40,221 nt of DNA from an uncultured Methanosarcinales archaeon (GCA_964590935.1 CAZPXC010000002.1:12885-53105), one strand, 5' to 3'. Counted from the first letter of the stretch, positions 20,068 through 36,220 are shown. Numbers and translations: made by a program. Notes: generated from the sequence alone by a model not told the origin.

Positions 20068-21515
20068 AAAGGCAGTATAAAAGATACTCCCTTATCATCG
20101 TGATGCTGCTGGCGTTAGCTGTATTGCTCGTCCCCCATGTGATAAGATACAGCCATTTTGACAACTTCATGGTCGGCGGTATGCCTTATTACCATGCGAG
20201 GATCGCCCAGCGCCTGAGCCACGGCTATTCCGGGTATGACCAGCTCAGCTACAGCGGCTCTGCGTACATATTCGATGCATACGACGTTGCCCTCGCCATC
20301 ATCGGGCAGTTCATAGGTGTACTTACAGCATCCAATGTCCTGCCGTTTGCACTGGGGCTCTGCTCTGTGGTGCTGCTCTTCCTCCTCCTGGGCAGGCTTA
20401 AGCTCAGCTCAGGCATGAGACTCTTGACCATGCTGCTATGGATACTCTCGCCTGTCTTCATCTACACGTTCACTGTCTCCAACCCTTTCGCTCTCGTGAT
20501 CTTCCTTAACCTCGCAGGGTTCTATTTTTTTATGTCAAAGGACAGGAAGGCTGTCTTTTCGATTCTGTTCTTTGCGTTCATACCCCTGTTCGGGATCATA
20601 AACACCCTTATCACTGCATTCCTTGCCGTTATCTACACACTGAAGGAGAGGAAAAAGACAAGGGTACTTATCATGGTGCTTGTCCTGCTGTTCTCTGTGG
20701 GGTTTGTATACAATTTTCTTTTTTATTCTGCCTATGGCCTGCCGGGAAGGTTCATCCCTGTAAAGGAGAACCTCATCCAGAACAGCCTTGTGGAGCTTGG
20801 CGCGGTCCTCGGCTTCAACACCTTTGTGCTTCTGCTTTCTATAGTTGGCATGTTGAGCAACTGGAGGAAGAAGAGCAGGTTCGTATGGCTCTATATCCTT
20901 ATGGCAGCGCTTATCCTTTCCTTTATCTTCATCGATCCCCAGTTCAAGTCCCTCCTCAGCATCCTTGTCTCTTTTTTTGCAGCGTTCGGGCTGGCCACGC
21001 TTGCTGACATGAGGTGGGAGCTTAAGCTGATAAGAAACCTGACCATTGCCATGCTTTTATTCAGCATCATGTTCTCGACGTATGCATATATAGGAAGACT
21101 GTCCTTCATGGAACCGGGCCTGGATACGATAGGTTCCTTGACATGGCTCAGGTCCAACTCAGTCCATGAAGGGGTTGTCATATCCGACTATAAGAACGGG
21201 TTCTGGATCGAGTATTTTGCGCGGCGTCCTGTGGTTATGGACTCTCTTACCAGATACAGGCCGGAACCCAGGCAGCGTTACAATGACACGATCACGCTTT
21301 TCAGGACCAGGGACATGGACACGGCATCAGGGATCCTTGACAGGTATGATGTCAGGTATATCTTTGTCGATGCAAAGACCAGGGCACTGATGCTGGGTGA
21401 GAACAATATACTGGGCCTTGAGTTCCTGCTTGAGAACAGCAACAGCTTCAAGATGATTAAAAATACCAACGATGTGGAGATATGGGAATACAACCAGAGC
21501 AAAGTTCCTGGATAA
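20052..21515 (+). CDS. GT-C fold membrane glycosyltransferase, STT3/AglB-like paralog
   Basis: 487 aa, multi-TM. It has MPYYHARIAQRLSHGYSGYDQLSYSG in loop 1. The C-terminal ISDYKNGFWIEYFARRPVVMD sits where WWDYG is expected, followed by DRYDVRYIFVD. It overlaps the upstream gene by 16 nt. Confidence 0.55.
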   Translation: MLDRLKRQYKRYSLIIVMLLALAVLLVPHVIRYSHFDNFMVGGMPYYHARIAQRLSHGYSGYDQLSYSGSAYIFDAYDVALAIIGQFIGVLTASNVLPFALGLCSVVLLFLLLGRLKLSSGMRLLTMLLWILSPVFIYTFTVSNPFALVIFLNLAGFYFFMSKDRKAVFSILFFAFIPLFGIINTLITAFLAVIYTLKERKKTRVLIMVLVLLFSVGFVYNFLFYSAYGLPGRFIPVKENLIQNSLVELGAVLGFNTFVLLLSIVGMLSNWRKKSRFVWLYILMAALILSFIFIDPQFKSLLSILVSFFAAFGLATLADMRWELKLIRNLTIAMLLFSIMFSTYAYIGRLSFMEPGLDTIGSLTWLRSNSVHEGVVISDYKNGFWIEYFARRPVVMDSLTRYRPEPRQRYNDTITLFRTRDMDTASGILDRYDVRYIFVDAKTRALMLGENNILGLEFLLENSNSFKMIKNTNDVEIWEYNQSKVPG

Positions 21516-21539
21516 AATGACCAGCAGACGGGCAGCAAA

Positions 21540-22799
21540 ATGACTATTCTGAATTACTTGCCTACAATCCTGACTTTTATCTTTCTTTTGGTAATACTTT
21601 CATACTATATACTCATTTTTATACCAAGAAAAAAGCCAAGGCCGCATAAGAGGTTTTCCAGCATCTCAGTTATCATACCTGTACATAATGAAGAAGAATA
21701 TATCGAGGAGTGTATAGAATCTGTGCTGGCAGCAGGGTTCAAAGGCACCAAGCAGGTCATTGTTGTAGACGACGGGAGCAAAGACAAAACCGCCAGTATA
21801 GTTTCTAGGTTCAGGAAAGAAGGTGTCCGGCTCATCAAGACCAGGCATACAGGAAAATCAGCATCGATAAACCGCGCGCTTGCCGTGGCGTGCGGCGAGC
21901 TCATCGCTATCGTAGATGGAGACAGCTATATCAATAAGGATGCACTGCAAGCTTTGGCCCGCGAGGTGGAGCGTAAAAATGTTGTCGGAGCCACCTGCGT
22001 CGTCAAGGTAAAGAACAGAAGCAGGCTTCTTTGTATGTGGCCCCATATAGAACTGATATACGGATCCCTTATCAGGTCGATATTATCGAAGATAAACGCC
22101 AACATCACCACACCCGGGCCCTTAAGTGTCTACAGGCATAAGCAGCTAAAGGAGATCGGCGGTTTCAGCACTGAAGGTTTTTCTGAAGATGTTGATGTGA
22201 CCATACGCCTGATAAGAAAAGGATACAGGATCGGCTTTTCAGATGATGCGACAACATGGACTAACATGCCCTATAACATTAAGGGTTTCATCAGACAAAG
22301 GACAAGGTTTGCAAGAGGCCTGCTCAATATCCTAAAAAGGCACATGCAGCTGAACACGACAGCAATTGACCTTTACACGCTGCCGCTGTATTTTTTCTTA
22401 TATGTCCAGGCTGTCATAATGGGGATGTTCACGATATACCAGATCGGCTCAGGGTACATAACATGGTTCGCATCGTACGGCACGTATATAAGCTTTGGTG
22501 TGTTAAGGTTCTTTTTTGAATGGGCCTCAATCTATGGTTTTGTAAAATGGATCATAAGTGTGGCATCAGGAACTGTGCCGCTTACTTTTTTGACCATGGC
22601 AGGGATAGTGAGCTCATTGTTGTCATATCCACTGTACTTCTATGCTGTTTTCAAGTATGATAAAAGGATCGACCTGCTCCATATTATCCCGTTGTTCTTC
22701 ATGGCTCCGTTCTGGTGGGCCCTGATGATAATCAATATAGTGTGCCTGCCTGAGATGTTCATGAGGCACCAGAACAACATCTGGAAGAAGAATGAATAG
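21540..22799 (+). CDS. family 2 glycosyltransferase, processive-synthase architecture (variant QRTRF motif)
   Basis: 419 aa. Motifs: VIIPVHNEE, VVDDGSKD, VDGDS, FSEDVDV and QRTRFARG in place of Q(R/Q)xRW. It has an N-terminal TM and several C-terminal TM helices, as in PgaC/NodC/chitin or cellulose synthase-type enzymes. Confidence 0.8.
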   Translation: MTILNYLPTILTFIFLLVILSYYILIFIPRKKPRPHKRFSSISVIIPVHNEEEYIEECIESVLAAGFKGTKQVIVVDDGSKDKTASIVSRFRKEGVRLIKTRHTGKSASINRALAVACGELIAIVDGDSYINKDALQALAREVERKNVVGATCVVKVKNRSRLLCMWPHIELIYGSLIRSILSKINANITTPGPLSVYRHKQLKEIGGFSTEGFSEDVDVTIRLIRKGYRIGFSDDATTWTNMPYNIKGFIRQRTRFARGLLNILKRHMQLNTTAIDLYTLPLYFFLYVQAVIMGMFTIYQIGSGYITWFASYGTYISFGVLRFFFEWASIYGFVKWIISVASGTVPLTFLTMAGIVSSLLSYPLYFYAVFKYDKRIDLLHIIPLFFMAPFWWALMIINIVCLPEMFMRHQNNIWKKNE

Positions 22800-22872
22800 C
22801 ATGGTGGATATCACAAAAAAACACGGATTCAAACAATATCTTTTTAAATGATGAAAACAGTTCACGGACAAC

Positions 22873-24111
22873 ATGAATGCAATTTATAACTTCCTCGTGT
22901 ACTTTGTATGGTTCCTGGCCACTTATTACACTATCTTCTTTTTCTTATCCCTATATATACACAGGAACATGCTGTTCGAGGATAAAAAATCAGTAAGCCG
23001 CAAAAGACGGATGGTTTCGGTTCTTATCCCTGCATATAATGAAGAAAAGGATATCGCAGAGACCATCAGGTCACTTAAGAAACTTGACTACAGGAGGGCA
23101 GAATTTATCATAATAAACGACGGCAGCAGCGATAATACATCTTCTATCGTAAACAAGAGCATCAGGGGCGATAAGAGGTTCAGGTTTATTGACAATAAGG
23201 TCAATTCCGGAAAGGCAGCGTGCCTGAACAATGGCATCGCCCAGGCCAGGGGTGAATTTATTGCATGCATGGACGCAGACTCTGTGATCGATAATGATAT
23301 CATGGGCAAGGTCCTGCCTTATTTTAATGATCCAAAGGTGGGTGCCGTGACCGTAACTGTGCAGGTTAAGAATCCAAAAACATTCCTTCATAAGATAATA
23401 GACCTGGAATTTACACTGGGGCTGTCGCTTTTCCTGAAACTGTTCTCATTTCTAGAATGTGTTTTCGTAACTCCAGGGCCTTTTTCCATCTATCGCAGGA
23501 GTGTACTTAACGAGATAGGCGGCTATGATACAGACAATATAACAGAGGACCATGAGATAGCCTTCAGGCTGCATAAGCATGGCTATAAGATCAGGAACTG
23601 CATGGAGGCGAAGGTGTACACCACCCTCCCGGATACTTTTAAGGGCATCTATATCCAGAGAAGAAGGTGGTATTCTGGGGCGATCCAGACCCTGTTCCAG
23701 CATAAGGATATCGTCTTTAAGAAAGAGTATGGGCTGTTCGGATTTTTTATCCCGTTCAACTATTCATTGATCGGCCTGGGGCTGGTCCTTTTTGGGGCAT
23801 CTACTTATCTTTTATTTTCAAAGACCCTCGACAATATATTATATTTCAAATACACGAATTTCAATTTTCTTGACCATATCTTTGATTTCAACTGGGATAT
23901 ACTTAACTATAGCAGGGTCAATCTTCTTGGGATGGGCCTGTTTGTAGGGACTGTTGTGCTCATGCTGATGGGGCTTAAGTTCACCAGGAAGAAATACTCG
24001 GACAACAAGCTTGGGCTTCTGGGATACCCTTTCCTGTTTTTTCTTTATCAATTATACTGGGGCGGTGCCATCCTTGCAGCGATAAGAGGGAAAAGGGTAA
24101 AATGGAGATAA
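22873..24111 (+). CDS. family 2 glycosyltransferase, processive-synthase architecture (canonical QRRRW)
   Basis: 412 aa. Motifs: VLIPAYNEE, INDGSSD, MDADS, ITEDHEI (TED) and QRRRWYSG, plus an N-terminal TM and C-terminal TM bundle. Confidence 0.85.
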   Translation: MNAIYNFLVYFVWFLATYYTIFFFLSLYIHRNMLFEDKKSVSRKRRMVSVLIPAYNEEKDIAETIRSLKKLDYRRAEFIIINDGSSDNTSSIVNKSIRGDKRFRFIDNKVNSGKAACLNNGIAQARGEFIACMDADSVIDNDIMGKVLPYFNDPKVGAVTVTVQVKNPKTFLHKIIDLEFTLGLSLFLKLFSFLECVFVTPGPFSIYRRSVLNEIGGYDTDNITEDHEIAFRLHKHGYKIRNCMEAKVYTTLPDTFKGIYIQRRRWYSGAIQTLFQHKDIVFKKEYGLFGFFIPFNYSLIGLGLVLFGASTYLLFSKTLDNILYFKYTNFNFLDHIFDFNWDILNYSRVNLLGMGLFVGTVVLMLMGLKFTRKKYSDNKLGLLGYPFLFFLYQLYWGGAILAAIRGKRVKWR

Positions 24112-24815
24112 AGAGACGGATAGCCCTTATATCATTCATCATAACCCTGTTTCTGCTGTTTACAGTCATACTGCTCGGCTCTGTCATGAACAATAAAAGG
24201 GAAGAGCACCTGGATTCCCAGTTTCAGACGATCTACCAGGACTTTAACAATATGCAGGTTTTATTTCTCCTGTCAGAATCCTACGATAATGAGATGGCAT
24301 GCCTGGCATTTGAGACAAAGCTTAAGGAGATGGACACAACGATCTGGACACTGGGAGAGAAGATTGATAGTTACCGTTCTGCGAGCGAAGAGTTCCATCA
24401 AAATACATACTACTGGGACCAGAAGAAAGTTTTCAATGAGGATGAGGTGTTTTATTACCTTCTCATGAAGCAGATGCTGGACAAATGCAACATAAGCAAG
24501 CAGATCATACTGTTCTTCTACCAGAATTCCGCTGACTGCAAGAAGTGCGATGACCAGTCGTTCATACTAAGCGATATAAGAAAGCTTGATGATGACAAGG
24601 GCAGGCAGGAGGTCGCGATCTTTTCCTTTGACATGGACCTTAACCTGTCAACACTCAATATCTTATCAAAGTATTATAAGATCGAAAAATACCCCTGCAT
24701 TATAATGGATGAACAGAAATACTGCGGCATCCAGGATAAGGATTTCATCATGGACAGGATATGCTCTGATAAACCGAACCTCTACATCTGTTCTATATAC
24801 AATAAAGGAAAGTAA
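24102..24815 (+). CDS. membrane-anchored thioredoxin-fold-like protein with a CxxC motif
   Basis: 237 aa. N-terminal TM IALISFIITLFLLFTVILLG. ILFFYQNSADCKKCDDQ carries CKKC, and KYPCIIMD is a possible cis-Pro loop. It overlaps the upstream GT2 by 10 nt. The fold assignment comes from motif spacing only. Confidence 0.5.
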   Translation: MEIKRRIALISFIITLFLLFTVILLGSVMNNKREEHLDSQFQTIYQDFNNMQVLFLLSESYDNEMACLAFETKLKEMDTTIWTLGEKIDSYRSASEEFHQNTYYWDQKKVFNEDEVFYYLLMKQMLDKCNISKQIILFFYQNSADCKKCDDQSFILSDIRKLDDDKGRQEVAIFSFDMDLNLSTLNILSKYYKIEKYPCIIMDEQKYCGIQDKDFIMDRICSDKPNLYICSIYNKGK

Positions 24816-24826
24816 GTGATACATCC

Positions 24827-25417
24827 ATGAAAAAGATAACAGATGAATCATCCGGCAGGATACTGGCAATCTGTATCTGCGTATTCTTTATCGTCCTGGG
24901 CATCATCGACATGACAGCAGGAAGAAAGGACCTGATGGCTGACAGGTTCTTCATCGCCTTTCTGGCCCTGGTTTCCTTTTTCCTGTATAAAAAACTGCAC
25001 ATGAACATCGTCATCATGCTTGTCGGCCTGGCTGCTGTAGTCCTGCATTCGATAAAGCTGTACGGCAACAACTACTTTGGCATCCCCTTCGACCATTATA
25101 TGCACGTCGTAGGGGGCTTTGCATGCGCCCTTATCTTCTACAATTACCTTAACCATGAGCTTAAGAAAAAGAACCATCTCCAGGCATTTTTCCTTGCCGT
25201 CTGCATCACAGCCGGTCTCGGCTCATTCATGGAAATAATGGAGTTTGTCGGCTATTCATTATTGGGCCAGGGAGGAGGGGTTTTCTTTTACGGAGCAGGA
25301 GACATAGGTGAATGGAACAATGCAGCATGGGATATGATCAACAACTCTATCGGCGCTATCGTAGCCTCTTTCACCTGTTTTCTTGTAGATATCCTCAAAG
25401 ACAGGAACCGCCGTTGA
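24827..25417 (+). CDS. integral membrane protein, function unknown
   Basis: 196 aa with 5-6 hydrophobic segments. It is the last gene of the plus-strand glycosylation operon, 11 nt after the previous stop. Confidence 0.6.
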   Translation: MKKITDESSGRILAICICVFFIVLGIIDMTAGRKDLMADRFFIAFLALVSFFLYKKLHMNIVIMLVGLAAVVLHSIKLYGNNYFGIPFDHYMHVVGGFACALIFYNYLNHELKKKNHLQAFFLAVCITAGLGSFMEIMEFVGYSLLGQGGGVFFYGAGDIGEWNNAAWDMINNSIGAIVASFTCFLVDILKDRNRR

Positions 25418-25631
25418 CTTATTTCTTAAAAAATTATATAGTCGTTGGTTATCTTTTATGATAATTGTCTTGATACGCTTTTTTCCTTTGGATATCTTCA
25501 ATGTGGCGACAGACATCACAAGCGTGATTATGCCGGACAACATCCCGAATATGTTCAGGAAATTCAGCCCCCTGTCACCAAGATCTTCATACAGTTCCGC
25601 AAAAACAGGATGTATAAAAAATTATTGGCTG

Positions 25632-26843
25632 TCAGGCATACTTTTTGATGAGCCTCTCCAGATGCTCAAAAAGCAGGGAATCATCCCATCTCCCGATCCT
25701 GGAAATATTTTTCCTGTATCTTTCAAGGTTAGACTCAAATGACCTGATATCCCTGAGGCTTAACCTCTCTGCAAATGAGCCGTACCCTTTCTGTTTTATG
25801 CAGTAGGCGTTGTATATCTGCTCAAACTGCTTTTCCACAGGGATGCACAGTATCGGCTTTTTCAGGTAAAGTGCCTCTGATATCACTGTAAAGCCCCCGT
25901 TGATTATAACATACCTGCAGGTCCTCAGGTCCTCGAGAAAGGTCTTTTCGCTGAACGGCATGAACTCAAGATTGCCGGTTTTTCTCTTCCGGCCCATCCC
26001 GTATATCCTGTACCGGATGCCGGTCTTTTTCAGCACAGGCAGCATCCTTATGTTGGTCTCAGACGTCTGATAGATGAGGACAAAGTCCTTGTCAACAGGC
26101 TTTAGCGAAAGGACAGATTCGCGTATTATAGGCGGGACAACCTTTGTCCTGCCCGGTCTCCTGGCATGAAACTCTGCAAAGGCGGTGATGATGTAATGGC
26201 TGGCCCATGGGTGAAGGAAGCGGATGATACATGTCTGGTAAAACGAGTGCTTAAATCTCGTCTTAAGCTCGGTGAGAGCATGGTTATTGTCGATGTTTAT
26301 GCAGGGTATCCCAAATAACAGCGAGAAATACTCTGATGCAGACTCGAAATCAGATATTATCACATCAGGCTTAAAACGCCCAATAAGCGGCCTTAATATC
26401 CTGTAATTGGCCACAACCATGTATGGCATCGTCCGGATGAACCTTGCGAAAGAACGAAGGTACTGGACATTGTTGTCCTTGTAGACAAGAGTATTGCCGT
26501 ATATCTTATGCACTCTTGAGCCGTATCTTTCCCTGAGATAGGGATAAGACCTTTCTGCGGCTGTTATCAGGACCTCATGCTTCTTTGTAAGCCATGCAAG
26601 CACTGAATCACTCCTTGTTGCATGCCCCATGCCCTCTCCGCATACTGAGTACCATATCCTTGCCACATATACAGGTGTTCCTGCAAATAATTTAAAGTTA
26701 TCGAAGGAATCAAGTAATAAATGGATCATATGGTGAAGTCTCCAATTTGATATCTTCTTGAAAAAACCCATCCACTGCGGGTGGAGCAATGCCAACATGG
26801 ATATGATCTCAAACACGCTGGGAGCCTGCATCTGATATTTCAT
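25632..26843 (-). CDS. GT-B fold glycosyltransferase (GT1/GT28, MJ1255-like)
   Basis: 403 aa. Has the N-terminal glycine-rich motif VCGEGMGHATRS and the C-terminal INGGFTVISEALYLKKPILCIPV..QFEQ..NA. The first ~58 aa are atypical, so an internal GTG at 26666 (VARIWYSVCGEGMGH) is an alternative start. Confidence 0.75.
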   Translation of the reverse strand: MKYQMQAPSVFEIISMLALLHPQWMGFFKKISNWRLHHMIHLLLDSFDNFKLFAGTPVYVARIWYSVCGEGMGHATRSDSVLAWLTKKHEVLITAAERSYPYLRERYGSRVHKIYGNTLVYKDNNVQYLRSFARFIRTMPYMVVANYRILRPLIGRFKPDVIISDFESASEYFSLLFGIPCINIDNNHALTELKTRFKHSFYQTCIIRFLHPWASHYIITAFAEFHARRPGRTKVVPPIIRESVLSLKPVDKDFVLIYQTSETNIRMLPVLKKTGIRYRIYGMGRKRKTGNLEFMPFSEKTFLEDLRTCRYVIINGGFTVISEALYLKKPILCIPVEKQFEQIYNAYCIKQKGYGSFAERLSLRDIRSFESNLERYRKNISRIGRWDDSLLFEHLERLIKKYA

Positions 26844-26888
26844 CGCCTACCTGAGAAAGCGATAACCCTTAAGATATCTCTGAATAAT

Positions 26889-26900
26889 CAGATTTAAATA
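26889..26900. promoter_or_regulatory. palindromic TATA element (ATTTAAAT) between divergent glycosyltransferase genes
   Basis: cAGATTTAAATA lies 24 nt upstream of ATG 26925 (plus strand) and about 46 nt upstream of ATG 26843 (minus strand). Confidence 0.45.
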
Positions 26901-26924
26901 CTTGCTTTGGAATACATTTTTTTT

Positions 26925-28304
26925 ATGAAACATAGGATTTTCAGGCACCCGTTATTTTATCTTCTTTTGGTCACTGCTGCTGTTAAGGTGTTTTTTTTGC
27001 TCTCCAGATACCATCTTTTCATCTGGGATGAGGCAGTCTATCTGGGGATGGGAAAGTGGATATTTTCTGCAGGCCGCTTGGGAATCTGGGAATGGATAAG
27101 GCCCCTCGGATTACCGCTGGTCCTTGGAGCATTATGGAAAACAGGGCTTAATTACCAGGTTCTTGCTGACCTTGTGATCCTCCTCTTCACTCTCGGGACA
27201 ATAGCCATGACATATCTTATCGCTGAGGAAGTGTTCAACAGGAAAACCGCTTTTCTCTCTGCAATATTCCTGCTTGCCACACCGGTCTTCTTCTATAATT
27301 CCATGCTTGTTATGACAGGCATACCCTCGCTTTTCTTCATACTCCTGGCAGTTTATCTTGCCATGAAAAAAAAGTATTGGCTCTCCGGGCTGTTCTCATT
27401 TCTCGCGTTCTTTTTCAGGTATCCTGCCGGGCTGATCATCGTTGCAGTAAACCTGATGCTGCTGTACAAACTTATCAAAAGGAAAAACTGGAAACATATC
27501 CTGAGGCCGGCCCTGGGCTACAACCTGGTCTTCTTTTCCGGCCTTGCTGCATACCTGCTGTACAACAGGCTTTCCTTCGGGCAGTTCCTCGAGCCATTCC
27601 TGCTCGCGAGCCAGCACCAGAGCAGCATAATAGGCAATATCCCGGGCTTTTTTGCAAACCTGCTGTACTATCCCTATACTATCGTGATAACCAACATATT
27701 CATCATATCTGTTCTATTTTTCAGGTACAGGAAAAACTCAGGCCATGTCCTTGTTCCACTTGCTGTCTTCCTGCTCTATTTTACTGCAATACCCCATAAG
27801 CAGCCGCGCTTTGCCATACTGTTCCTGCCCTATGTCATGATGCTTGCCTCTTCCGGCTTTTTTACAGTGGTATCATACCTGAAAAAATACAGGTCGGCAA
27901 GGATGGTCTTGCTGCTCCTTCTGCTTGGGTTTATCGCTTACCCTGCGTATCTTGATTACCAGATATTCAGCAGGCTGCCCTCAGAAGAGCCAGGTATTGT
28001 AAAAGACTATTACAGCTATTTTGACGGCTATAACGGCACTATACTGACATCAGACCCTGTTCCTGCTGCGTACACAGACAGCAGGTACATAGGATATTAC
28101 AGCAATATGACCAACGCCTGGATGATCTATGACACCAATATCAATAATTCCATAGCAGTTATATACACGCCAGCCTCTTTCCCGTGCATAGACCAGGAGT
28201 GCAACGCTTCCAAGACAGAGCTGGAGAACGAGATAAAGAATGATGCGACTCTTGTCTACAACAGCACATGGCTGGGCGAACTAAAGCAGATATATGTTAA
28301 ATAG
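26925..28304 (+). CDS. GT-C fold glycosyltransferase, PMT_2/ArnT-like (GT39/GT83 type)
   Basis: About 459 aa from ATG 26925 (the track starts at TTG 26907). It has more than 10 TM helices and an acidic loop-1 motif HLFIWDEAVYLGMGK typical of dolichyl/undecaprenyl-phosphate-sugar dependent transferases. Confidence 0.75.
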   Translation: MKHRIFRHPLFYLLLVTAAVKVFFLLSRYHLFIWDEAVYLGMGKWIFSAGRLGIWEWIRPLGLPLVLGALWKTGLNYQVLADLVILLFTLGTIAMTYLIAEEVFNRKTAFLSAIFLLATPVFFYNSMLVMTGIPSLFFILLAVYLAMKKKYWLSGLFSFLAFFFRYPAGLIIVAVNLMLLYKLIKRKNWKHILRPALGYNLVFFSGLAAYLLYNRLSFGQFLEPFLLASQHQSSIIGNIPGFFANLLYYPYTIVITNIFIISVLFFRYRKNSGHVLVPLAVFLLYFTAIPHKQPRFAILFLPYVMMLASSGFFTVVSYLKKYRSARMVLLLLLLGFIAYPAYLDYQIFSRLPSEEPGIVKDYYSYFDGYNGTILTSDPVPAAYTDSRYIGYYSNMTNAWMIYDTNINNSIAVIYTPASFPCIDQECNASKTELENEIKNDATLVYNSTWLGELKQIYVK

Positions 28305-28812
28305 ACTAATATTTACTTATTTTTTCTTATATATTGGTTAACCTTACAAACATTTACTATTTATATTTATATTAAATTAACTAACAGAAAACTATAAAAC
28401 ATGGTTTTTTATTTTCTTATTATTCACATAACATTAGATGATACCTCAATAATTCCCATATTTTAAATGTTTAGATTAAAAAATCAGTTAACCATATTAA
28501 CAAAAAATGCTTTTTAGCTCATTTCAGTTTCTATAATCAAAAAAAATTAAATAAAAATTAAAAATGGATTAACTTATCTTAATTTAAATTAAGTTTTAGT
28601 TATTTGATTTAACAAAAAGTATGTTAAATTAGATAACCAATATGACAATTAAATGATATTTACAATATTTATCATCTGATAATTGTTATCTTTATTAACA
28701 AAAAATCATTAAAAATCGATAAAAGTTATATTTATCCGCATTTAAATTCAATAAATTGTTATATCAAACCACAGCAAAAGATTTAAATAGTAGTAAGGTT
28801 AATCTAATTAAC
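28305..28812. other. roughly 500-bp extremely A+T-rich non-coding region
   Basis: I hand-counted three 60-nt lines (28361, 28541, 28601) and got 13%, 10% and 18% G+C. A hypD line (7621) gave 53%. There is no ORF of 60 aa or more. It ends in the AAAGATTTAAATA promoter. Confidence 0.8.
28777..28789 (+). promoter_or_regulatory. BRE/TATA-like AAAGATTTAAATA for the small-ORF and giant-protein operon
   Basis: It ends 23 nt before ATG 28813, so the transcript is predicted to be leaderless. Confidence 0.5.
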
Positions 28813-29106
28813 ATGATTGGCAGTGAAGGCTATATTAACAATGGGAAGCCAATGCTGATATACACTTATTCTACAGAGCATCTGCTGAAAAAAGATAAGG
28901 TGAGGTTCTATTATGCCCTCAAATGCCGGGACGGGAAATCCGGTATTGTCAAGGAACTGAAGATAGTGCATCTTGGAAGGACCGTGCTCATGGTCGATGC
29001 CAGGCACGAAGAGGATATGGTCCAGTTCTTCAAGCTGTGGAACCTGCCCTATACCAGACGAAAGGCGATCGTAGATGATGATGTGCTGAGGGGTGGACCG
29101 CCATGA
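28813..29106 (+). CDS. small conserved-looking protein translationally coupled to the giant surface protein gene
   Basis: 97 aa from ATG 28813 (MIGSEGYINNGKPMLIYTYSTEHLLKKDKVRFYYALKCRDGKSGIV...). The track's TTG 28756 start lies inside the promoter. Its stop overlaps the giant gene ATG (ATGA at 29103-29106). Confidence 0.6.
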   Translation: MIGSEGYINNGKPMLIYTYSTEHLLKKDKVRFYYALKCRDGKSGIVKELKIVHLGRTVLMVDARHEEDMVQFFKLWNLPYTRRKAIVDDDVLRGGPP

Positions 29107-32100
29107 GAAGGCAGTATATGCTCCTTGCGATGCTGATCATCGCCGCTGCCAGCGCACAGGCTGCACAGTACTCTGTCTGCAGTACGGGCTGTGATTTCAC
29201 GAACATCACAGGTGCCCTGGAGAACGTGACCGGGACAGGGAACACGCTCTTCATCAACGGGTCAGGCACATACAACATGACCAACACCACTACGTTTTTT
29301 GTATATGCTGCCTCCAGCAACGGCGGGTTAAGTGTAAACGCGTCCGATGTAATCCTTGAATGTAATAATGTAAGCATTGCCGGCAACAGCACAGGATACG
29401 GCATCTTCGTGACTGCAGATAATGTCACTGTCCACAATTGCCAGGTCAGCAACTATACCCAGGGGATAAGGATCCTGGGCTCTTCACAGGACTCGGTAGT
29501 ATCAGGCAGCATTATCTCTGATTCTGATTACGGCCTCTGGGTGAGCGCCTCAAATTATACCCTGATAACCGGATCAACTATAAGTTCAGCCGCATCCTCG
29601 GCTGTGCAGTTTGCCAATGGCGCAGTCAACAACACGCTGCTTAACTGCATCATCCAGAGCTCTGTGCAGGACATAAGCTCAAGCGGCACAGGCAGCTCTA
29701 ATCTCGTGGTAAACAGCTCATTTGACGGTTCCAAATCCACAAATGTCCAGGACAGCTCCCGTGTATTCGTAAAATGGTACTTCCGCGTCTTTGTAAATGA
29801 CACATCAGGCAACCAGGTCAATGCCACAGTAAATATCAGCGACAGCTTCTCTACATTGGCATATTCACTGCAGACAGATGCAAGCGGCTACACTGCAGAG
29901 AAGAACATCACAGAATACATGAGAAACAGCAGCTCCTCTTCAATATTCTACACCAACTATACGTTCTATGCCTATAATTCTACTAATTTCGAGAACAGCT
30001 CTGTCAATGTAACAGGCTCTGGAACTATTGTACTGACTTTCGACCTTACTGCGCCGCAGATATCCGGCATCCAGAATTCGACAAGCAACGAGTCTGTCAA
30101 TATCACCTGGACAACAGATGACCTAAGCAACTCAAGCATCAGATGGGGCAATTCCTCTGCCAGCCTGAACAATGCACTTTCCAACAGCAGCATGACGAGG
30201 GTACATTTCATAAATATCTCTGATGAATATTCAAATAAGACCCACCTGGATGCAAACACGACATACTATTTTAACATCACTTCCTGCAATGACCAGGGCT
30301 TATGTACAGAGGCAGGGGTGTTTAATTTCACCACAAACACGACAATCGACAGATCAGCCCCTTCTGCCAGCAACATCGTCAACACAACAACAAATGAATC
30401 TGCATTGATAACATTCGACACTGATGATAATGCTAATGCGACTGTCGAATACGGGACTAATGTTTCTATGACACTGTCTACAGGAAATTCAAGCTATAAT
30501 CAAAACCATACGTTCAATATAACCGGCCTGAGTGATAATACAACATATTACTACAATATCACTGTATGCAACGGGGACCAGTACTGCAATGAGTATGGCA
30601 GCTATAATTTCACGACCAACGCAACAATAGACTATTCTGCCCCGGTCATAAGCAATATTCTCAACACAACGACAAACGAGTCTGTGCTAATAACATTCGA
30701 CACTGACGACAATGCTAATGCGACTATCGAATACGGGACCAATGTTTCTATGACACTGTCTACGGGAAATTCAAGCTATAATCAAAACCATACGTTCAAT
30801 ATCACTGGCTTGGATTCCAACACGACATATTATTACAATATAACCGCATGCAATTCAAATGGGAACTGTACAGAGCAGGGCGTTTATAATTTCACGACCA
30901 ACCAAACAACCCCAGACACATCAGCACCTGTTATAAGCAATATCATGAACACAACAACAAATTCCACAGCAACAATAACATTCGACACTGACGATAGTGC
31001 AAACGCTACCATCAAATACGGCACAAGCACATCACTGGGCTCTTCTGCAAAAAACAGCACTCTTGCCCATAATCATTCATTCAGCATCACCGGGCTGGAC
31101 TCCAACACCACATATTACCTCAACATAACCGCATGCAACTCATATGATAACTGCACAGAGCAGGGCACCTATAGCTTCACGACCAACGCAACAATAGACA
31201 CCTCTGCCCCGGCAATAAGCAACATCATCAACACAACAACAAATTCCACAGCAACAATAACATTCGACACTGACGATAGTGCAAACGCTACCATCAAATA
31301 CGGCACAAGCACATCACTGGGCTCTTCTGCAAAAAACAGCACTCTTGCCCATAATCATTCATTCAGCATCACCGGGCTGGACTCCAACACCACATATTAC
31401 TACAACATAACCGCATGCAACATCTATGGCTACTGCAGCGAAGACGGGACATACAGTTATCAGACGAATACCACTCCTGATCAGAGCCCGCCTGTGATAT
31501 CTTCTGTATCCAATTCCTCGATAACCAACATAAGCGCTGTGATATCCTGGACAACGAACGAGGCAGCGAACAGCACTGTCAAGTACGGCACATCATCGGG
31601 CAGCTATACTGCTTCAAAGGGCAGCGCAACGATGACGACAAGCCACAGCGTCACCCTCACAGGGCTCTCTGATGAGACGACATATTATTATGCTGTCAAC
31701 AGCTCTGATGCCAGCGGCAACTCTGCACAGGGCTCGGAAAAGAGCTTTACGACATCTGATTCGACCCCGCCTGTGATAAGCAGTGTCCAGAGCTCAGGCG
31801 TCATGGGAACTTCTGCCACTATCTCATGGACCACGGACGAGACTGCCGATTCCCAGGTGAAGTACGGCACCACGAGCAATTCATATTCTCATTCAAAATC
31901 GACAACAGGGTATTTCACCAACCACAGCATCGCGCTGAGCGGCCTTTCGGGGGACACGACCTATTATTATCGCGTGGTCAGCAACGATTCTACCGGGAAC
32001 TCTGCCCAGAGCAGCCAGGGCAGCTTCACCACTACGGATACTGAAGCACCATCAATAACCTTCACATACCCTGTAAATGCCTCGACCACAGTCGCTGATG

Positions 32101-35100
32101 TCAAGAACGTGAGGCTGACAGTGACGACAGACGAAGCTGCTACATGCACAGCGACCAGCTACAAGATAGGCTCCAGCGTAACTTCTACAGATAAGGTGCT
32201 TACGCCCGCAAACGCAAACAATGTCAGCCATACTGCATATTTCAACGCAACATCGGAGTCATCCGGCTATAATTTCTATTTCACTGTCCAGTGCATAGAT
32301 TCAGAAAGCAACAGCAGGACAAGCACAGTGTATTTCAAGCTTGACGACACGACAGCCCCAACTGCAACTTTTGTCTCGCCCACTCCGGCAGACGGCTCAG
32401 TCAAGGACAGCGAAAACCTGACAGTCAAGCTGAGCGTGAGCGAGGGGCAGGCATCAGGCTATCCGAAGCTGAGCATCGACGGCGGCTCAAATGCCAGCAT
32501 GACAAGCAGCAGCGGCTATTATACATACACCAAGAAAGACCTTTCCGAGGGCAGCCACAACTTCACTGTCTACCTCTCTGATGCGTATGGTAACAAGCGC
32601 TCATATACTAGGGACTATACAGTCGATACAGAGGCTCCGGACTTTGATGAGATGTATCCTGAGGATGATGATGTTATCAGCAACTGCATGGACCTCGTCC
32701 TTAACATCACCCTTGATGAGGAGGCTGACTGCCAGTATGTCCTTTATGAATACAGGGAGGAAAAATACGACAGCTGCATAGATAACTGCGATGAGGATAA
32801 GACCTCATGCAACGATGATGAAGACAAGACCACCACCGAATGCAACGATGATTATGACACTTGCGAGAGCGACTGCGATGATGATAAATACAGGGAGAAG
32901 AAGAGCGGCGACCTGAAAGAGGAATACGGGGTAGAGGACTGCAAGAATGACTGCGACGATGTGGAGGACAGCTGCGTCGATGACTGCAAGGACGAAAAGG
33001 CAACATGCATAGAGGGGGCATCCGACAGCAGTGATAGAGACGACTGCACGAGTAATTATGAAGACTGCAAGGATTCGTGCTCTGACGATAAGGATGACTG
33101 CTATGACGACTGCAACACAGGAAGCTTCTTCTACGTGGAAAAATTCGACACCACCTGTCTTGCAGACGGGGACTACATGGCAGAATACACCTGCGAGGAT
33201 AACGCGTCAAACGTGGGTGAGGAGAACGTCACGTTCACCATGAGCGACACCACAGCGCCGGAAATCGTCTTGACGAGCCCGAACGGCACCATCGAAAAGT
33301 CCAGCACAAAGCTGAGCGTGACAACAGATGAGTATGCAGTATGCAGGTTCTCTGAGAGCAACGTGGGCTATGGATCCATGAACTATACATTCATAGGCAA
33401 CACCAAGACGCACACCTACACATTGGGAGGACTTGAGAACAAGGACTACCAGTTCTATGTGCTGTGCAACGATTCAAACGGCAATGTGATGGACAATGCG
33501 GAAAAGATCGCGTTCACTGTTAGCAGCTCCACAGCTTCATCATCAGTATCACATGGGTTCAAGACGATGAAAGCAGGAGAGTCGCAGTCATTCATCATCA
33601 GCCAGACAGACATCCCGGTCACAAAGATCACGGTCACGGTGAATGAGGACGTGCAGGCTGCAAACATCAATGTCAAGAAACTGTCCGATACCTCAAGCAT
33701 CAAAAAGCCTTCAAAGCCTGTATACCAGTACATCGAGGTGACCAAGGACGGAATATCGAACAAGCAGATCGCCAAGGCGACCATCGATTTCATGGTGCCG
33801 AAGTCATGGCTCGATGACAACGGACTGAAGCCCGAAGATGTGTCGCTTTTCAGGTATACCACGACCTGGGAGGAGGTGCCCACGACAAAGATAAGCGAAG
33901 ACGGCAATAATGCATATTACCAGGCCGAGACCACTGATTTCAGCGTCTTTGCGATAATGCCGGACGGCGTCCAGGCAACTACGACGACGACAAAACAGGC
34001 GACCCAGAGCAGCGATTCACAGGCAAAGACCGCCGCATCTTCCCCTGATAACAGCAGCAAAGAGGCCAGCGTCGAGCAGCCGGCAGATGTTGCTGAAAGT
34101 GGCGGCAGCTATACATGGCTTATCATTCTTCTATGTGTTGTGGTTGTGGGAGGTGGCTCAGCAGTCTTTTACGTCTATAAGTCACATAGACACCCCCAAC
34201 AAGACTCCTTTGCTGAAGCACATAAGCAACCAACACACTCAGCTGCAGCAGGCGAGAGATCTACTTCTCAGTCGGCTCTCTCTGCTGCAGCTTCATTATC
34301 ACCAGAGCAGGTCCAGGAGGCTGAATCTGCTGTGAGGCCGGACGATGAGCTTGGGCAGTACATCGTCGCCTCGCTGAAAAGCGGCCAGGACATCCAAGCT
34401 GTAAAAAAAGCTCTGCTCGATGCGGGCTATGACGAGGACAGCATCGGAGCAGAACTGGCCGAACTGAAGCTTGCAGACCCGCTCGCTGATTACATCAAGA
34501 CCGCGCTCGAGGCAGGCCAGGAGCTTGACGTGATAAAAAACGGGCTTATAGATGCAGGCTACGGCCCGCAGGATGTCGTGAACAAGTTTTCCGACATGGG
34601 CCTAGCAAAGATGGACTCTGGCCGGCAGGACATGGAGATAAACGATTACATAAGAGCATCTCTGGGGTCCGGGATGAGGCCAGGAGATATAAAGCAGGCG
34701 CTGCAGGATGCAGGCCATGATCCGGGCCATATAGACGAGCTTATGGCTGCATTTGAAAGCCCGCAGCCGGCAGAGAGTGGCGAAACAGTGGAGCAACCGC
34801 CCGAGGAAAGTGCCCAGGTTTCGGAACAGCAATCGCCTGAAGAACAGGCACAGCCAGAGGATGCTGATGCAGAGATAAAGGAATATATTACAAAATCTTT
34901 TAGAGCTGGAGAGGACGCTTCGCAGATAAGGACAGCTCTTGTCGGCGCCGGCCACGGTCCGGAAAAGGTCGACAGGCTCATCTCTGGTATTGTGGAAGGT
35001 TCAGGGACGCAGCAGCCTCAGGAAGAGCAGGAAAAGGCAGAGCCTGCCAAAACTGATGCAGAACAGGAAAAACCGCAGAGCGCAGAAGACCACACTCCCA

Positions 35101-35375
35101 AGCATGACGAGGTAATGGATTATATCAAGGACGCGACAGAAGACAGGGTCCCCAGAAGGGTCATCAAGACCGCGCTCGTGAAGGCAGGCCACAGCAAGAA
35201 GGAGATAGACAAGAGGTTCAGGGAGATAGACACAGCGCAGAAGAAGATGGAAAGGGACATAAGGCAGTATTTCAGGATAGGAAAGAAAGAGGGCAAGACA
35301 AAGAAGCAGATAAAGGAAGACCTGATAGATTCCGGCATAGACGCCAGGACCATCAGGAAGATCGCCAAGGTCTAG
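29103..35375 (+). CDS. giant (2090 aa) cell-surface glycoprotein or adhesin with a TM helix and cytoplasmic repeat tail
   Basis: Order of parts: signal peptide MRRQYMLLAMLIIAAASAQA; beta-helix-like N-domain (CSTGCDFTNITGAL...); about 7 FN3-like modules (SAPxISN...ITFDTDD...YGT...NITGL..NTTYYYNIT); Ig-like DTxAP modules; a Cys/Asp-rich insert; a PGF-pre-PGF-like domain (VYQYIEVTKDG...DFSVFAIMP); a Thr-rich linker; the TM helix WLIILLCVVVVGGGSAVFYVY; and a roughly 398-aa tail. Confidence 0.9.
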   Translation: MRRQYMLLAMLIIAAASAQAAQYSVCSTGCDFTNITGALENVTGTGNTLFINGSGTYNMTNTTTFFVYAASSNGGLSVNASDVILECNNVSIAGNSTGYGIFVTADNVTVHNCQVSNYTQGIRILGSSQDSVVSGSIISDSDYGLWVSASNYTLITGSTISSAASSAVQFANGAVNNTLLNCIIQSSVQDISSSGTGSSNLVVNSSFDGSKSTNVQDSSRVFVKWYFRVFVNDTSGNQVNATVNISDSFSTLAYSLQTDASGYTAEKNITEYMRNSSSSSIFYTNYTFYAYNSTNFENSSVNVTGSGTIVLTFDLTAPQISGIQNSTSNESVNITWTTDDLSNSSIRWGNSSASLNNALSNSSMTRVHFINISDEYSNKTHLDANTTYYFNITSCNDQGLCTEAGVFNFTTNTTIDRSAPSASNIVNTTTNESALITFDTDDNANATVEYGTNVSMTLSTGNSSYNQNHTFNITGLSDNTTYYYNITVCNGDQYCNEYGSYNFTTNATIDYSAPVISNILNTTTNESVLITFDTDDNANATIEYGTNVSMTLSTGNSSYNQNHTFNITGLDSNTTYYYNITACNSNGNCTEQGVYNFTTNQTTPDTSAPVISNIMNTTTNSTATITFDTDDSANATIKYGTSTSLGSSAKNSTLAHNHSFSITGLDSNTTYYLNITACNSYDNCTEQGTYSFTTNATIDTSAPAISNIINTTTNSTATITFDTDDSANATIKYGTSTSLGSSAKNSTLAHNHSFSITGLDSNTTYYYNITACNIYGYCSEDGTYSYQTNTTPDQSPPVISSVSNSSITNISAVISWTTNEAANSTVKYGTSSGSYTASKGSATMTTSHSVTLTGLSDETTYYYAVNSSDASGNSAQGSEKSFTTSDSTPPVISSVQSSGVMGTSATISWTTDETADSQVKYGTTSNSYSHSKSTTGYFTNHSIALSGLSGDTTYYYRVVSNDSTGNSAQSSQGSFTTTDTEAPSITFTYPVNASTTVADVKNVRLTVTTDEAATCTATSYKIGSSVTSTDKVLTPANANNVSHTAYFNATSESSGYNFYFTVQCIDSESNSRTSTVYFKLDDTTAPTATFVSPTPADGSVKDSENLTVKLSVSEGQASGYPKLSIDGGSNASMTSSSGYYTYTKKDLSEGSHNFTVYLSDAYGNKRSYTRDYTVDTEAPDFDEMYPEDDDVISNCMDLVLNITLDEEADCQYVLYEYREEKYDSCIDNCDEDKTSCNDDEDKTTTECNDDYDTCESDCDDDKYREKKSGDLKEEYGVEDCKNDCDDVEDSCVDDCKDEKATCIEGASDSSDRDDCTSNYEDCKDSCSDDKDDCYDDCNTGSFFYVEKFDTTCLADGDYMAEYTCEDNASNVGEENVTFTMSDTTAPEIVLTSPNGTIEKSSTKLSVTTDEYAVCRFSESNVGYGSMNYTFIGNTKTHTYTLGGLENKDYQFYVLCNDSNGNVMDNAEKIAFTVSSSTASSSVSHGFKTMKAGESQSFIISQTDIPVTKITVTVNEDVQAANINVKKLSDTSSIKKPSKPVYQYIEVTKDGISNKQIAKATIDFMVPKSWLDDNGLKPEDVSLFRYTTTWEEVPTTKISEDGNNAYYQAETTDFSVFAIMPDGVQATTTTTKQATQSSDSQAKTAASSPDNSSKEASVEQPADVAESGGSYTWLIILLCVVVVGGGSAVFYVYKSHRHPQQDSFAEAHKQPTHSAAAGERSTSQSALSAAASLSPEQVQEAESAVRPDDELGQYIVASLKSGQDIQAVKKALLDAGYDEDSIGAELAELKLADPLADYIKTALEAGQELDVIKNGLIDAGYGPQDVVNKFSDMGLAKMDSGRQDMEINDYIRASLGSGMRPGDIKQALQDAGHDPGHIDELMAAFESPQPAESGETVEQPPEESAQVSEQQSPEEQAQPEDADAEIKEYITKSFRAGEDASQIRTALVGAGHGPEKVDRLISGIVEGSGTQQPQEEQEKAEPAKTDAEQEKPQSAEDHTPKHDEVMDYIKDATEDRVPRRVIKTALVKAGHSKKEIDKRFREIDTAQKKMERDIRQYFRIGKKEGKTKKQIKEDLIDSGIDARTIRKIAKV
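30348..31478 (+). repeat. four tandem 282-285 bp coding repeats (FN3-like modules) inside the giant gene
   Basis: Units start at 30348, 30630, 30915 and 31197. Positions 30948-31118 and 31230-31400 are identical over 171 nt. Units 1 and 2 are roughly 90% identical by eye. Confidence 0.9.
34341..35372 (+). repeat. six divergent cytoplasmic protein repeats (about 35-aa core, helix-rich) in the giant protein tail
   Basis: The six cores are YIVASLKSGQDIQAVKKALLDAGYDEDSIGAEL, YIKTALEAGQELDVIKNGLIDAGYGPQDVVNKF, YIRASLGSGMRPGDIKQALQDAGHDPGHIDELM, YITKSFRAGEDASQIRTALVGAGHGPEKVDRLI, YIKDATEDRVPRRVIKTALVKAGHSKKEIDKRF and YFRIGKKEGKTKKQIKEDLIDSGIDARTIRKIA. Confidence 0.8.
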
Positions 35376-35765: not shown

Positions 35766-35906
35766 ATGGCTACTGAAACTGTTACAATTCCAAAAGAAGA
35801 GTATGAATTTCTTAAAAAGAAAGCTCAGATAGATGAAGATCTATTGAATCAGTTTGTCAGAAGCCTGGAAGACATTAAAAACGGAAGAATCAGAAGAGTT
35901 TGCTAA
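35766..35906 (+). CDS. 46-aa putative antitoxin-like protein (below the ORF-track cutoff)
   Basis: MATETVTIPKEEYEFLKKKAQIDEDLLNQFVRSLEDIKNGRIRRVC. A TATA-like AAAAATATAAAAA and AAAGGAG lie upstream. Its 3' end overlaps the convergent RelE gene by 4 nt. Size and charge pattern resemble small archaeal antitoxins, but this is a weak call. Confidence 0.4.
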   Translation: MATETVTIPKEEYEFLKKKAQIDEDLLNQFVRSLEDIKNGRIRRVC

Positions 35907-36220
35907 AGCCTTTTGAGGGCTTCTTTTACTATATCCTGATATTCATAAAGTTTAAATCTAATCGAATCTATAGTCGATTGCTGTGTTTTCTTATCGCTTA
36001 CAGCTACCATCAGAACAACCACGAAATCTTCATAGATCAGGTAATATATTCTTCTTTTGTTTAGCTTCTTTTCCTTCAGGAATGAGAGTCCAAGTGGCTT
36101 TCCAACAAAAGGATTTTCAGAAAGCTTTCTTTCGAATTTCTCTACTTCTCTTTGTTCAGTTTTAGGTAGCTTATCAAATTGCCTGTCAAATTCCTCTGTC
36201 CTGAAAACCTTGAATTTCAT
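35903..36220 (-). CDS. relE: RelE/ParE-family type II toxin
   Basis: 105 aa. MKFKVFRTEEFDRQFDKLPKTEQREVEKFERKLSENPFVGKPLG...RRIYYLIYEDFVVVLMVAVSDKKTQQSTID matches the RelE/ParE (COG2026-like) sequence pattern. Confidence 0.75.
   Translation of the reverse strand: MKFKVFRTEEFDRQFDKLPKTEQREVEKFERKLSENPFVGKPLGLSFLKEKKLNKRRIYYLIYEDFVVVLMVAVSDKKTQQSTIDSIRFKLYEYQDIVKEALKRL

Follow-up and report, generated by a model that had tools for sequence, protein, structure and literature searches.

Archaeal surface proteins are usually seen as S-layer subunits that are held on the cell by a short transmembrane (TM) stub or by a lipid that an archaeosortase adds. The closest described systems to the one reported here are the PGF-CTERM substrates of archaeosortase A (ArtA), such as the S-layer glycoprotein of Haloferax volcanii and surface proteins of Methanosarcinales. 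Here, we analyze the C-terminal part of a giant surface glycoprotein encoded in a 40,221-nucleotide (nt) stretch of DNA, referred to as the window, from an uncultured Methanosarcinales archaeon (GCA_964590935.1 CAZPXC010000002.1:12885-53105). The region in question (33540..35375) corresponds to amino acids (aa) 1480-2090 and the stop codon, i.e., the last 611 codons, of a plus-strand open reading frame (ORF) of 2090 aa (29103..35375). As in PGF-CTERM substrates, there is a Sec signal peptide, an N-glycosylated ectodomain, a Thr-rich stalk and a hydrophobic helix followed by basic residues and, as in the substrates of Methanosarcinales, a PGF-pre-PGF domain lies next to the anchor. In contrast to these substrates, however, the protein has no PGF, its helix lies 398 aa from the C terminus, the tail is itself conserved, and the conserved residues are inside and after the helix (CVVVVGGG..HRHPQQD) rather than before it. 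Given these differences, lipid anchoring by ArtA is not expected.

Another precedent comes from H. volcanii, in which an ArtA substrate combines NifU with a central PGF tripartite signal (Abdul Halim et al. 2017, described in PMC6098224). It also has a hydrophobic segment in mid-protein and a long cytoplasmic part but it is a strain-specific fusion, keeps PGF and is cleaved, whereas the cassette described here is found family-wide and lacks PGF. Eukaryotic type I adhesion receptors (integrins, cadherins) offer a purely functional analogy, without homology, since they have a single TM helix between a large, glycosylated and modular ectodomain and a tail, which in our protein may likewise recruit partners. 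The architecture is not described in the literature we searched that mentions the PGF-pre-PGF domain. Its members are already deposited under automatic names, while four elements are new to the libraries searched (Pfam, NCBIfam, PHROGs and PDB): the 29-aa signature of the TM/juxtamembrane block, the ~38-aa profile of the repeat, the family of 97-aa proteins and the palindrome of 15 bp. The reading that we favor, to which we assign a probability of roughly 0.55, is that the giant protein has a permanent type I anchor independent of ArtA and a tail that serves for docking, with a small protein encoded just upstream as the prime candidate partner.

A PGF-pre-PGF domain without a PGF-CTERM signal

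The last extracellular domain of the giant protein (33561..33959, residues 1487-1619) is a PGF-pre-PGF domain. The initial annotation had named this domain, and the NCBIfam model TIGR04213 bears it out with a score of 100.8 bits against a cutoff of 28 (E=7.1e-29), the match covering profile positions 14-152 of 153. The domain occupies an equivalent position in 19 relatives. A search of PDB with its profile returned no match. It is followed by a Thr/Ser/acidic extracellular linker (33960..34115, residues 1620-1671), which contains TTTTTKQATQ and which varies from 29 to 61 aa across the family. Then comes the best-conserved segment of the cassette, a TM helix with a juxtamembrane motif, WLIILLCVVVVGGGSAVFYVY-KSHRHPQQD (34116..34205, residues 1672-1701). 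Its hydrophobic part, WLIILLCVVVVGGGSAVFYVY (residues 1672-1692), is the sole internal hydrophobic segment of the giant protein, and 398 residues follow the helix. The Thr-rich linker, the hydrophobic segment and KSHRH are thus all present as first quoted.

The absence of a sorting signal, also part of the initial annotation, holds as well. None of the tripeptides PGF, PEF, PGY, PAF and PGL occurs anywhere in the 2090 residues, and TIGR04126, the PGF-CTERM model, gives no match at E<=10 to either the whole protein or its C-terminal fragments. The outer edge of the helix reads GGSYTW, and no tripeptide is conserved there across the family. Of the features of an ArtA substrate, the giant protein therefore lacks the PGF motif, the extreme C-terminal position and the TIGR04126 match, while the basic/His flank is present but internal. 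It could still be argued that the protein is a cryptic ArtA substrate, with a degenerate internal PGF-CTERM-like signal and a tail that is a disposable fusion, since the PGF-pre-PGF domain owes its name to its association with PGF-CTERM, TIGR04126 is insensitive (PMC9723798), and ArtA is able to process an internal tripartite signal (PMC6098224). We consider this very improbable, because the tripeptide is missing here and has no conserved counterpart at the outer edge in any family member, and because Haloferax no longer processes a substrate whose PGF has been permuted to PFG (PMC6098224). Moreover, the tail and juxtamembrane motif are conserved family-wide, unlike a strain-specific fusion, and archaeosortases have been reported only from a subset of Euryarchaeota (PMC6098224), whereas most labeled relatives of the giant protein are DPANN archaea. 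From InterPro counts, such as 24 PGF-pre-PGF versus 2 PGF-CTERM proteins in M. acetivorans (PMC5244752), it had seemed that PGF-pre-PGF usually occurs without PGF-CTERM. We have withdrawn this generalization because of the insensitivity of TIGR04126, Methanosarcinales having an average of ~20 PGF-CTERM proteins (PMC9723798).

Upstream of the cassette, the giant gene encodes a signal peptide (MRRQYMLLAMLIIAAASAQA), a series of ectodomain domains and a Cys/Asp-rich segment. In the ectodomain, PF16656 (146.4 bits, seven stretches of FN3/Pur_ac_phosph_N-like type) and PF00041 (48.4 bits) both score above their curated cutoffs, while Big_13-type Ig-like matches are sub-threshold (22.6 bits versus a cutoff of 27). 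Neighboring FN3-like units at residues ~430-730 (~30400..31300) are almost identical, for example in two copies of ..DTSAP.ISNI.NTTTNSTATITFDTDDSANATIKYGTSTSLGSSAKNSTLAHNHSFSITGLDSNTTYY.., which suggests a recent internal duplication. The Cys- and Asp-rich low-complexity segment (..DSCIDNCDEDKTSCNDDEDKTTTECNDDYDTCESDCDDDK.., residues ~1185-1350, ~32650..33150), which may be a metal-binding or disulfide-knotted module, is kept in the related loci L001, L002 and L003.

The cassette recurs family-wide with its own TM/juxtamembrane signature

An exhaustive HMMER search with the tail recovered 30 proteins among 1.84 billion representatives. In 18 of them, a PGF-pre-PGF domain stands directly before a single TM helix, which is followed by the repeats. 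These proteins are mostly 1359-2876 aa long, with two shorter ones (528 and 807 aa) encoded on contigs of 2.7 and 5.4 kb, respectively. Word-indexed homolog searches returned one match with the 611-aa query, none with the domain alone and two with a profile of 18 domain sequences. A scan of a genome collection added a 2579-aa ortholog (L001) in a metagenome-assembled genome (MAG) labeled Methanosarcinales, and when metagenomes were scanned with nothing but the TM block of seven sequences, two loci emerged, both with the domain upstream and the repeats downstream. In total, 20 of 20 proteins (the 18 representatives, L001 and the further locus L002) have the domain, the helix block and the repeats, and the window holds all four elements of the module in order: PGF-pre-PGF domain, CVVVVGGG..HPQQ helix, three-helix tail and upstream 97-aa gene. 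All eight proteins that were checked (seven of the 18, plus the tail-less P0001) pass TIGR04213 with 55-95 bits, and none of the eight matches TIGR04126 at E<=1. Relatives that carry a name are called "PGF-pre-PGF domain-containing protein" or "NosD domain-containing protein" and come from MAGs of Woesearchaeota, Nanoarchaeia and Nanobdellota.

The anatomy of the cassette and its recurrence are solid. The initial annotation had proposed, as one option, that the sorting tail of this protein was replaced, an idea not borne out by the C-terminal alignment of homologs, in which the tail and TM block are conserved family-wide and no one-off replacement is seen. As judged from this comparison, the cassette is a conserved, family-wide architecture common to at least 20 proteins, with a TM/juxtamembrane signature of its own. 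Nor can the long ORF readily be dismissed as an assembly or gene-calling artefact fusing two unrelated genes. The contig does come from a MAG, and the tail of L002 contains an in-frame stop, but the notion, to which we attach next to no weight, is refuted by the occurrence of the same continuous architecture, with conserved order and spacing, on 19 or more independent contigs that differ in study of origin and in GC content (33-50%). The L002 stop itself (3242..3244) is single, the frame continuing beyond it with two repeats (3245..3517), and it may reflect an error in sequencing, a pseudogene or read-through.

Every member has a single copy of ..[IL]ILLCVVVVGGGSA.F[YF]VY[KR]SHRHPQQD.. when aligned on the invariant HPQ, or ..ILLCVVVVGGGSA.FYVYKSHRHPQQD in short form. 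In this TM/juxtamembrane block, V, G, G, H, P and Q never vary, and identity averages 67% between pairs of members and 74% to the window, as compared with 35% for the PGF-pre-PGF domain, 27% for the outer linker, 34% for the inner linker and 31% for the tail. Passive membrane anchors normally keep hydrophobicity only, and identity at this level therefore shows that the block is under sequence-specific constraint. It is missing, in its HPQQ form, both from P0001, a PGF-pre-PGF protein whose C terminus is formed by another type of helix and a short basic tail, and from repeat proteins in which there is no PGF-pre-PGF domain.

Conservation far beyond the needs of a passive anchor might also mean that the block is a processing signal, the GGG helix being cut by an intramembrane protease or an unrecognized sortase-like enzyme. 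The ectodomain would then be released or re-anchored and the repeat tail set free inside the cell, in the manner of regulated intramembrane proteolysis. The invariant small-residue G-G-G core, the conserved Cys and the conserved basic/His flank would suit such a role, and there is a precedent, described in PMC6098224, in the Haloferax ArtA substrate whose central, non-terminal PGF signal is processed. We nonetheless regard processing as rather unlikely, since none of nine loci has a gene for a protease or sortase linked to the module, and the conservation of the tail as six ordered modules suggests that it functions while attached.

The taxonomic labels in the family look inconsistent. L001, although titled Methanosarcinales, has its gene nearest that of L004, and L004 and L005 share downstream genes with Woesearchaeota/Nanobdellota loci (CysS throughout, and dCMP deaminase in L004). 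The family may reside in one DPANN-like clade or may have moved between lineages.

The cytoplasmic tail is built from six three-helix repeats

The distribution of residues on the two sides of the helix is strongly asymmetric. All 93 N-x-S/T sequons of the giant protein are N-terminal to the TM helix, and the 398-aa tail has none. Across 19 family proteins, there are 4.2 sequons per 100 aa outside versus 0.4 inside, half of the extracellular Asn residues lie in sequons versus 11% of those in the tail, and Cys residues number 2.6 per 100 aa outside versus 0.35 inside. In the same proteins, the 15 residues of the outer TM flank carry a net charge of -3.7, whereas Lys, Arg and His abound in the inner flank. 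Even in a few distant proteins with the reversed order (repeats, TM, rest), the repeats are again opposite the exported part. A signal peptide with a single TM helix implies a type I orientation, and the tail of the giant protein is accordingly cytoplasmic. The family-wide asymmetry in sequons, Cys and charge thus agrees with the single helix and long cytoplasmic tail of the initial annotation.

The six helical repeats noted there are likewise recovered, by sequence alignment, by profile and by AlphaFold2, at 34341..34472, 34473..34604, 34626..34757, 34860..34994, 35097..35234 and 35244..35363 (repeats 1-6, all on the plus strand). Each is ~40 aa long and shows 25-41% identity to repeat 1, with Y, L and G invariant. 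A profile built from the six finds six repeats in an independent ortholog, with domain E values from 1e-5 to 5e-15, and the repeat signal is far above chance. Iteration of the profile collected 133 repeats in 32 proteins, with the consensus ELKDYIKKSLKAGMSKEEIKKALVDAGHDEEEVDKLL. In the AlphaFold2 models, each repeat folds as helix-loop-helix-loop-helix, with a confidence (pLDDT) of ~72-93 in single-sequence mode (above 80 in most blocks) and of 76 for a two-repeat unit modeled with a multiple sequence alignment, while the linkers between repeats are disordered.

No curated family reaches threshold on the tail, although RecX_HTH1, DUF494, RuvA-C and PA2779 recur below cutoff, and profile and structure searches detect none of the known signaling domains. 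RecX repeats (RecX_HTH1-3) are also tandem three-helix units of ~40-50 aa, RecX gives sub-threshold matches in the tails of four of seven relatives scanned, and it is among the weak Foldseek matches. The scores, however, fall short of membership, with 15-16.5 bits against a RecX_HTH1 cutoff of 26 for the giant tail and 13-19 against NCBIfam RecX cutoffs of 146-189 for the relatives. Furthermore, in contrast to RecX, the repeats of the giant protein have no RecA context, are separated by long disordered linkers and have a membrane tether. Similar small three-helix bundles, with the pattern L..AG[YHW]d...v in helix 2-loop-helix 3, are found in CW_7 of the Cpl-7 endolysin and in the UBA-like N-domain of EF-Ts. 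Yet CW_7 is an extracellular peptidoglycan binder whereas the tail repeats are cytoplasmic, and the likeness is insignificant for single repeats. The weak natural matches in PDB were to Cpl-7 CW_7, the EF-Ts N-domain, RecX and polycystin-2. RecX, CW_7, EF-Ts and Pex14 were each considered as the identity of the repeat and set aside as weak analogies with insignificant matches. The repeat is a generic small three-helix bundle without an assignable biochemical function.

A miniature of the same design is encoded elsewhere in the window (15839..16969, plus strand). This 376-aa protein has a signal peptide, a ~150-aa ectodomain, a TM helix and a cytoplasmic tail of two to three repeats, which are of a KGW variant, and it scores 25.9 bits with RecX_HTH1 against the cutoff of 26. 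Neither the PGF-pre-PGF domain nor the HPQQ block is present in it. Its existence shows that tails in this organism employ the repeat more widely.

A 97-aa protein is encoded directly upstream of the giant protein

An all-against-all comparison of the loci exposed a small ORF before the giant gene, and the window copy, which encodes a 97-aa basic orphan protein (28813..29106, plus strand), was placed by alignment. The small gene is directly upstream of the giant gene in all eight loci in which the upstream region is visible (the window and L003-L009), and a ninth locus, L001, starts with the C-terminal end of the small gene, as a fragment. In the eight complete loci, stop and start codons overlap by 4 nt, as ATGA everywhere except in L003 (GTGA). 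The gene is not found upstream of the control locus L010, which encodes a repeat-bearing protein without the cassette.

In the window, a Shine-Dalgarno-like GAGGGGTGGACC lies in the last codons of the small gene (29087..29098, encoding RGGPP), 5-16 nt before the ATG of the giant gene. Across loci, the sequence of these codons, which is GAGGTGGTCC or closely similar, lies 4-13 nt ahead of the ATG, and the junction always conforms to (A/G)(A/G)GGTGG(T/A)CC..ATGA. The 3' end of archaeal 16S rRNA is ..GGAUCACCUCC, to which GAGGTGGTCC is complementary. This suggests an extended Shine-Dalgarno sequence, and the two genes are very probably translationally coupled.

The small proteins are 52-81% identical (mean 64%), have isoelectric points of 9.4-9.9 (9.4 in the window) and contain no hydrophobic segment. 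Their conservation is on par with that of the TM/juxtamembrane block (67%), unlike that of the rest of the giant protein. Searches of Pfam, NCBIfam, PHROGs, PDB and viral contigs with the small protein returned nothing significant. A different small-large pair with a 4-nt overlap occurs in L007 (13643..15951, Nanobdellota), where a 96-aa MazE/AbrB-type protein precedes a 673-aa Cadherin_5-like protein. The 96-aa protein has no detectable homology to the 97-aa family (tblastn, E<=1e-3).

The two-gene module has a conserved, putative promoter region with palindromes

An AT-rich region with 18% GC (28305..28812) lies upstream of the two-gene module on the plus strand. All loci have an equivalent gap of 480-570 nt and 9-22% GC before the small gene, its last ~60 nt being conserved in eight loci. 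In conserved alignment columns, we find a CAAAAG resembling a transcription factor B recognition element (BRE) and a TATA box, TTTAAATA (together 28775..28789, with the TATA box at 28782..28789, plus strand), a putative promoter by comparison with the archaeal consensus. The TATA box is ~24-31 nt before the ATG of the small gene, a spacing that predicts a leaderless or near-leaderless transcript.

Between the TATA box and the start codon there is a perfect, operator-like palindrome, GTTAAT-CTA-ATTAAC (28798..28812), and a palindrome scan found a second copy with one mismatch, GTTAACCATATTAAC (28487..28501). In the 3.4 kb of upstream gaps, GTTAAT-N3-ATTAAC occurs 12 times with at most one mismatch, against 0 copies in the other 200 kb of retrieved DNA and 0.14 copies expected in the gaps from region-specific Markov shuffles. 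This enrichment points to a dedicated dimeric DNA-binding regulator.

The small protein itself might be that regulator and nothing more, i.e., a mere autoregulator of the operon acting at the palindromes and not in contact with the giant protein, while the tail binds unlinked components such as the cytoskeleton or the division/envelope machinery. Its basic character and lack of a hydrophobic segment would suit this role, as would the confinement of the palindromes to the promoter region, with one of them between TATA box and start codon. Besides, repeats like those of the tail are also carried by membrane proteins that have no small partner gene (15839..16969 and P0017/L010). Nevertheless, the searches with the small protein detected no helix-turn-helix, ribbon-helix-helix, AbrB or other DNA-binding family, the match in its conservation is with the TM/juxtamembrane block (64% and 67%) and not with the rest of the giant protein, and the strict translational coupling suggests co-production in stoichiometric amounts. 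We consider the autoregulator unlikely on balance.

Both properties could also be combined. The two genes might form a hitherto undescribed archaeal transmembrane feedback or signaling device, in which a DNA-binding 97-aa regulator would recognize GTTAAT-N3-ATTAAC at its own promoter and would be captured, stoichiometrically, by the giant protein through its conserved HRHPQQD motif, its six tail modules or both. The level of free regulator would then depend on the state of that surface protein (its assembly, contact with a ligand or host, or cleavage of the GGG helix). We offer this as a distinctly speculative, improbable variant. If true, it would give DPANN-type archaea an outside-in link from a host- or substrate-contacting adhesin to gene expression.

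A proposed permanent anchor with a docking tail

The permanent anchor with a docking tail remains the reading that we prefer. The giant protein is secreted and heavily N-glycosylated and consists, toward its C terminus, of the PGF-pre-PGF domain, a flexible Thr/acidic stalk, the conserved helix, HRHPQQD and the six modules on disordered linkers. It would stay in the membrane as a type I protein, neither cleaved nor lipid-anchored by ArtA. ArtA needs PGF within its tripartite signal of motif, hydrophobic domain and charged region, the PGF-to-PFG change being enough to block processing (PMC6098224), which argues for a permanent anchor and not for an ArtA lipid anchor. The conserved helix and HRHPQQD would together form a specific interaction surface, and the six three-helix modules would be a multivalent cytoplasmic docking platform for an intracellular partner, the co-translated small protein being the prime candidate for this partner or for a regulator. 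The tail may in this way be the signaling or anchoring module that the initial annotation proposed.

Domain content, topology, conservation across the family, linkage of the two genes and promoter motifs are shown by the data, whereas we infer that processing does not take place, that the tail docks and what the small protein does. Several points weigh against this reading. A TM helix with a central GGG also fits a recognition site for a protease or a sortase-type enzyme. Profile searches of PDB with the repeats found no significant natural relative, the best matches being de novo designed three-helix proteins, and Foldseek searches with the whole tail and with a two-repeat unit gave nothing significant (E>=0.04). 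Since TIGR04126 is insensitive (PMC9723798), its negative result is weak by itself, and the missing PGF tripeptide is the stronger argument. No exosortase/archaeosortase Pfam match was found among ~30 ORFs scanned, which include every ORF of at least 190 aa that is not antisense within a larger or annotated ORF, in a scan that covers the 40-kb window of the genome. Finally, the family was sampled through its tail and TM block, so that variants without either would be missed.

The biology of DPANN archaea depends on cell-cell contact. The family keeps the membrane-proximal domain of archaeosortase substrates, yet uses a conserved helix, a juxtamembrane motif and a long, modular cytoplasmic tail, and is co-produced with a strongly conserved orphan protein. 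If the tail and the small protein do interact, this would be a rare archaeal case of a physical link from a giant adhesin-like glycoprotein to the cytoplasm, in a family whose labeled relatives are largely DPANN.

Genomic neighborhood

The window is chromosomal, as it contains genes for rpL3, rpL4, rpL2, a NUDIX protein, hypD, agmatinase and deoxyhypusine synthase. It gave no tRNA or Rfam matches. A glycosylation island (18547..28304), the order of which is largely kept in L004 and L005, borders the module on its upstream side. The island encodes multi-TM proteins of 506 and 487 aa, which are GT-C-like by size and topology, a PMT_2-like protein of 465 aa, two GT2 proteins, a GT1 protein on the minus strand, a 237-aa single-TM protein and a DUF2238 protein. 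Downstream of the module, CysS and dCMP deaminase genes are found in L004, L007 and L009, while L005 has CysS and a gene of the dCTP-deaminase/dUTPase type (PF06559/PF22769/PF00692). Matches to Pfam LGT (prolipoprotein diacylglyceryl transferase) occur near the module in L004 (26102..26881) and L005 (25629..26276). This is of note because archaeal Lgt homologs are reported as unidentified (PMC12462473).

Three further minus-strand genes of the window deserve mention. The first (9697..11511) encodes a 604-aa surface protein with a lamin-tail domain and 19 sequons, which ends in a C-terminal hydrophobic anchor and basic residues (..YLFAALGCILAGIIIWKRH), resembling a sorting signal without PGF. 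The second, just downstream of the giant gene (35903..36220), encodes a 105-aa RelE-like toxin (PHROG 1213, E=7e-6). The third (2056..3084) is the ribosomal protein L4 ORF, in which the Pfam match covers residues 18-263 with insertions and which, at 342 aa, is long for an archaeal L4.

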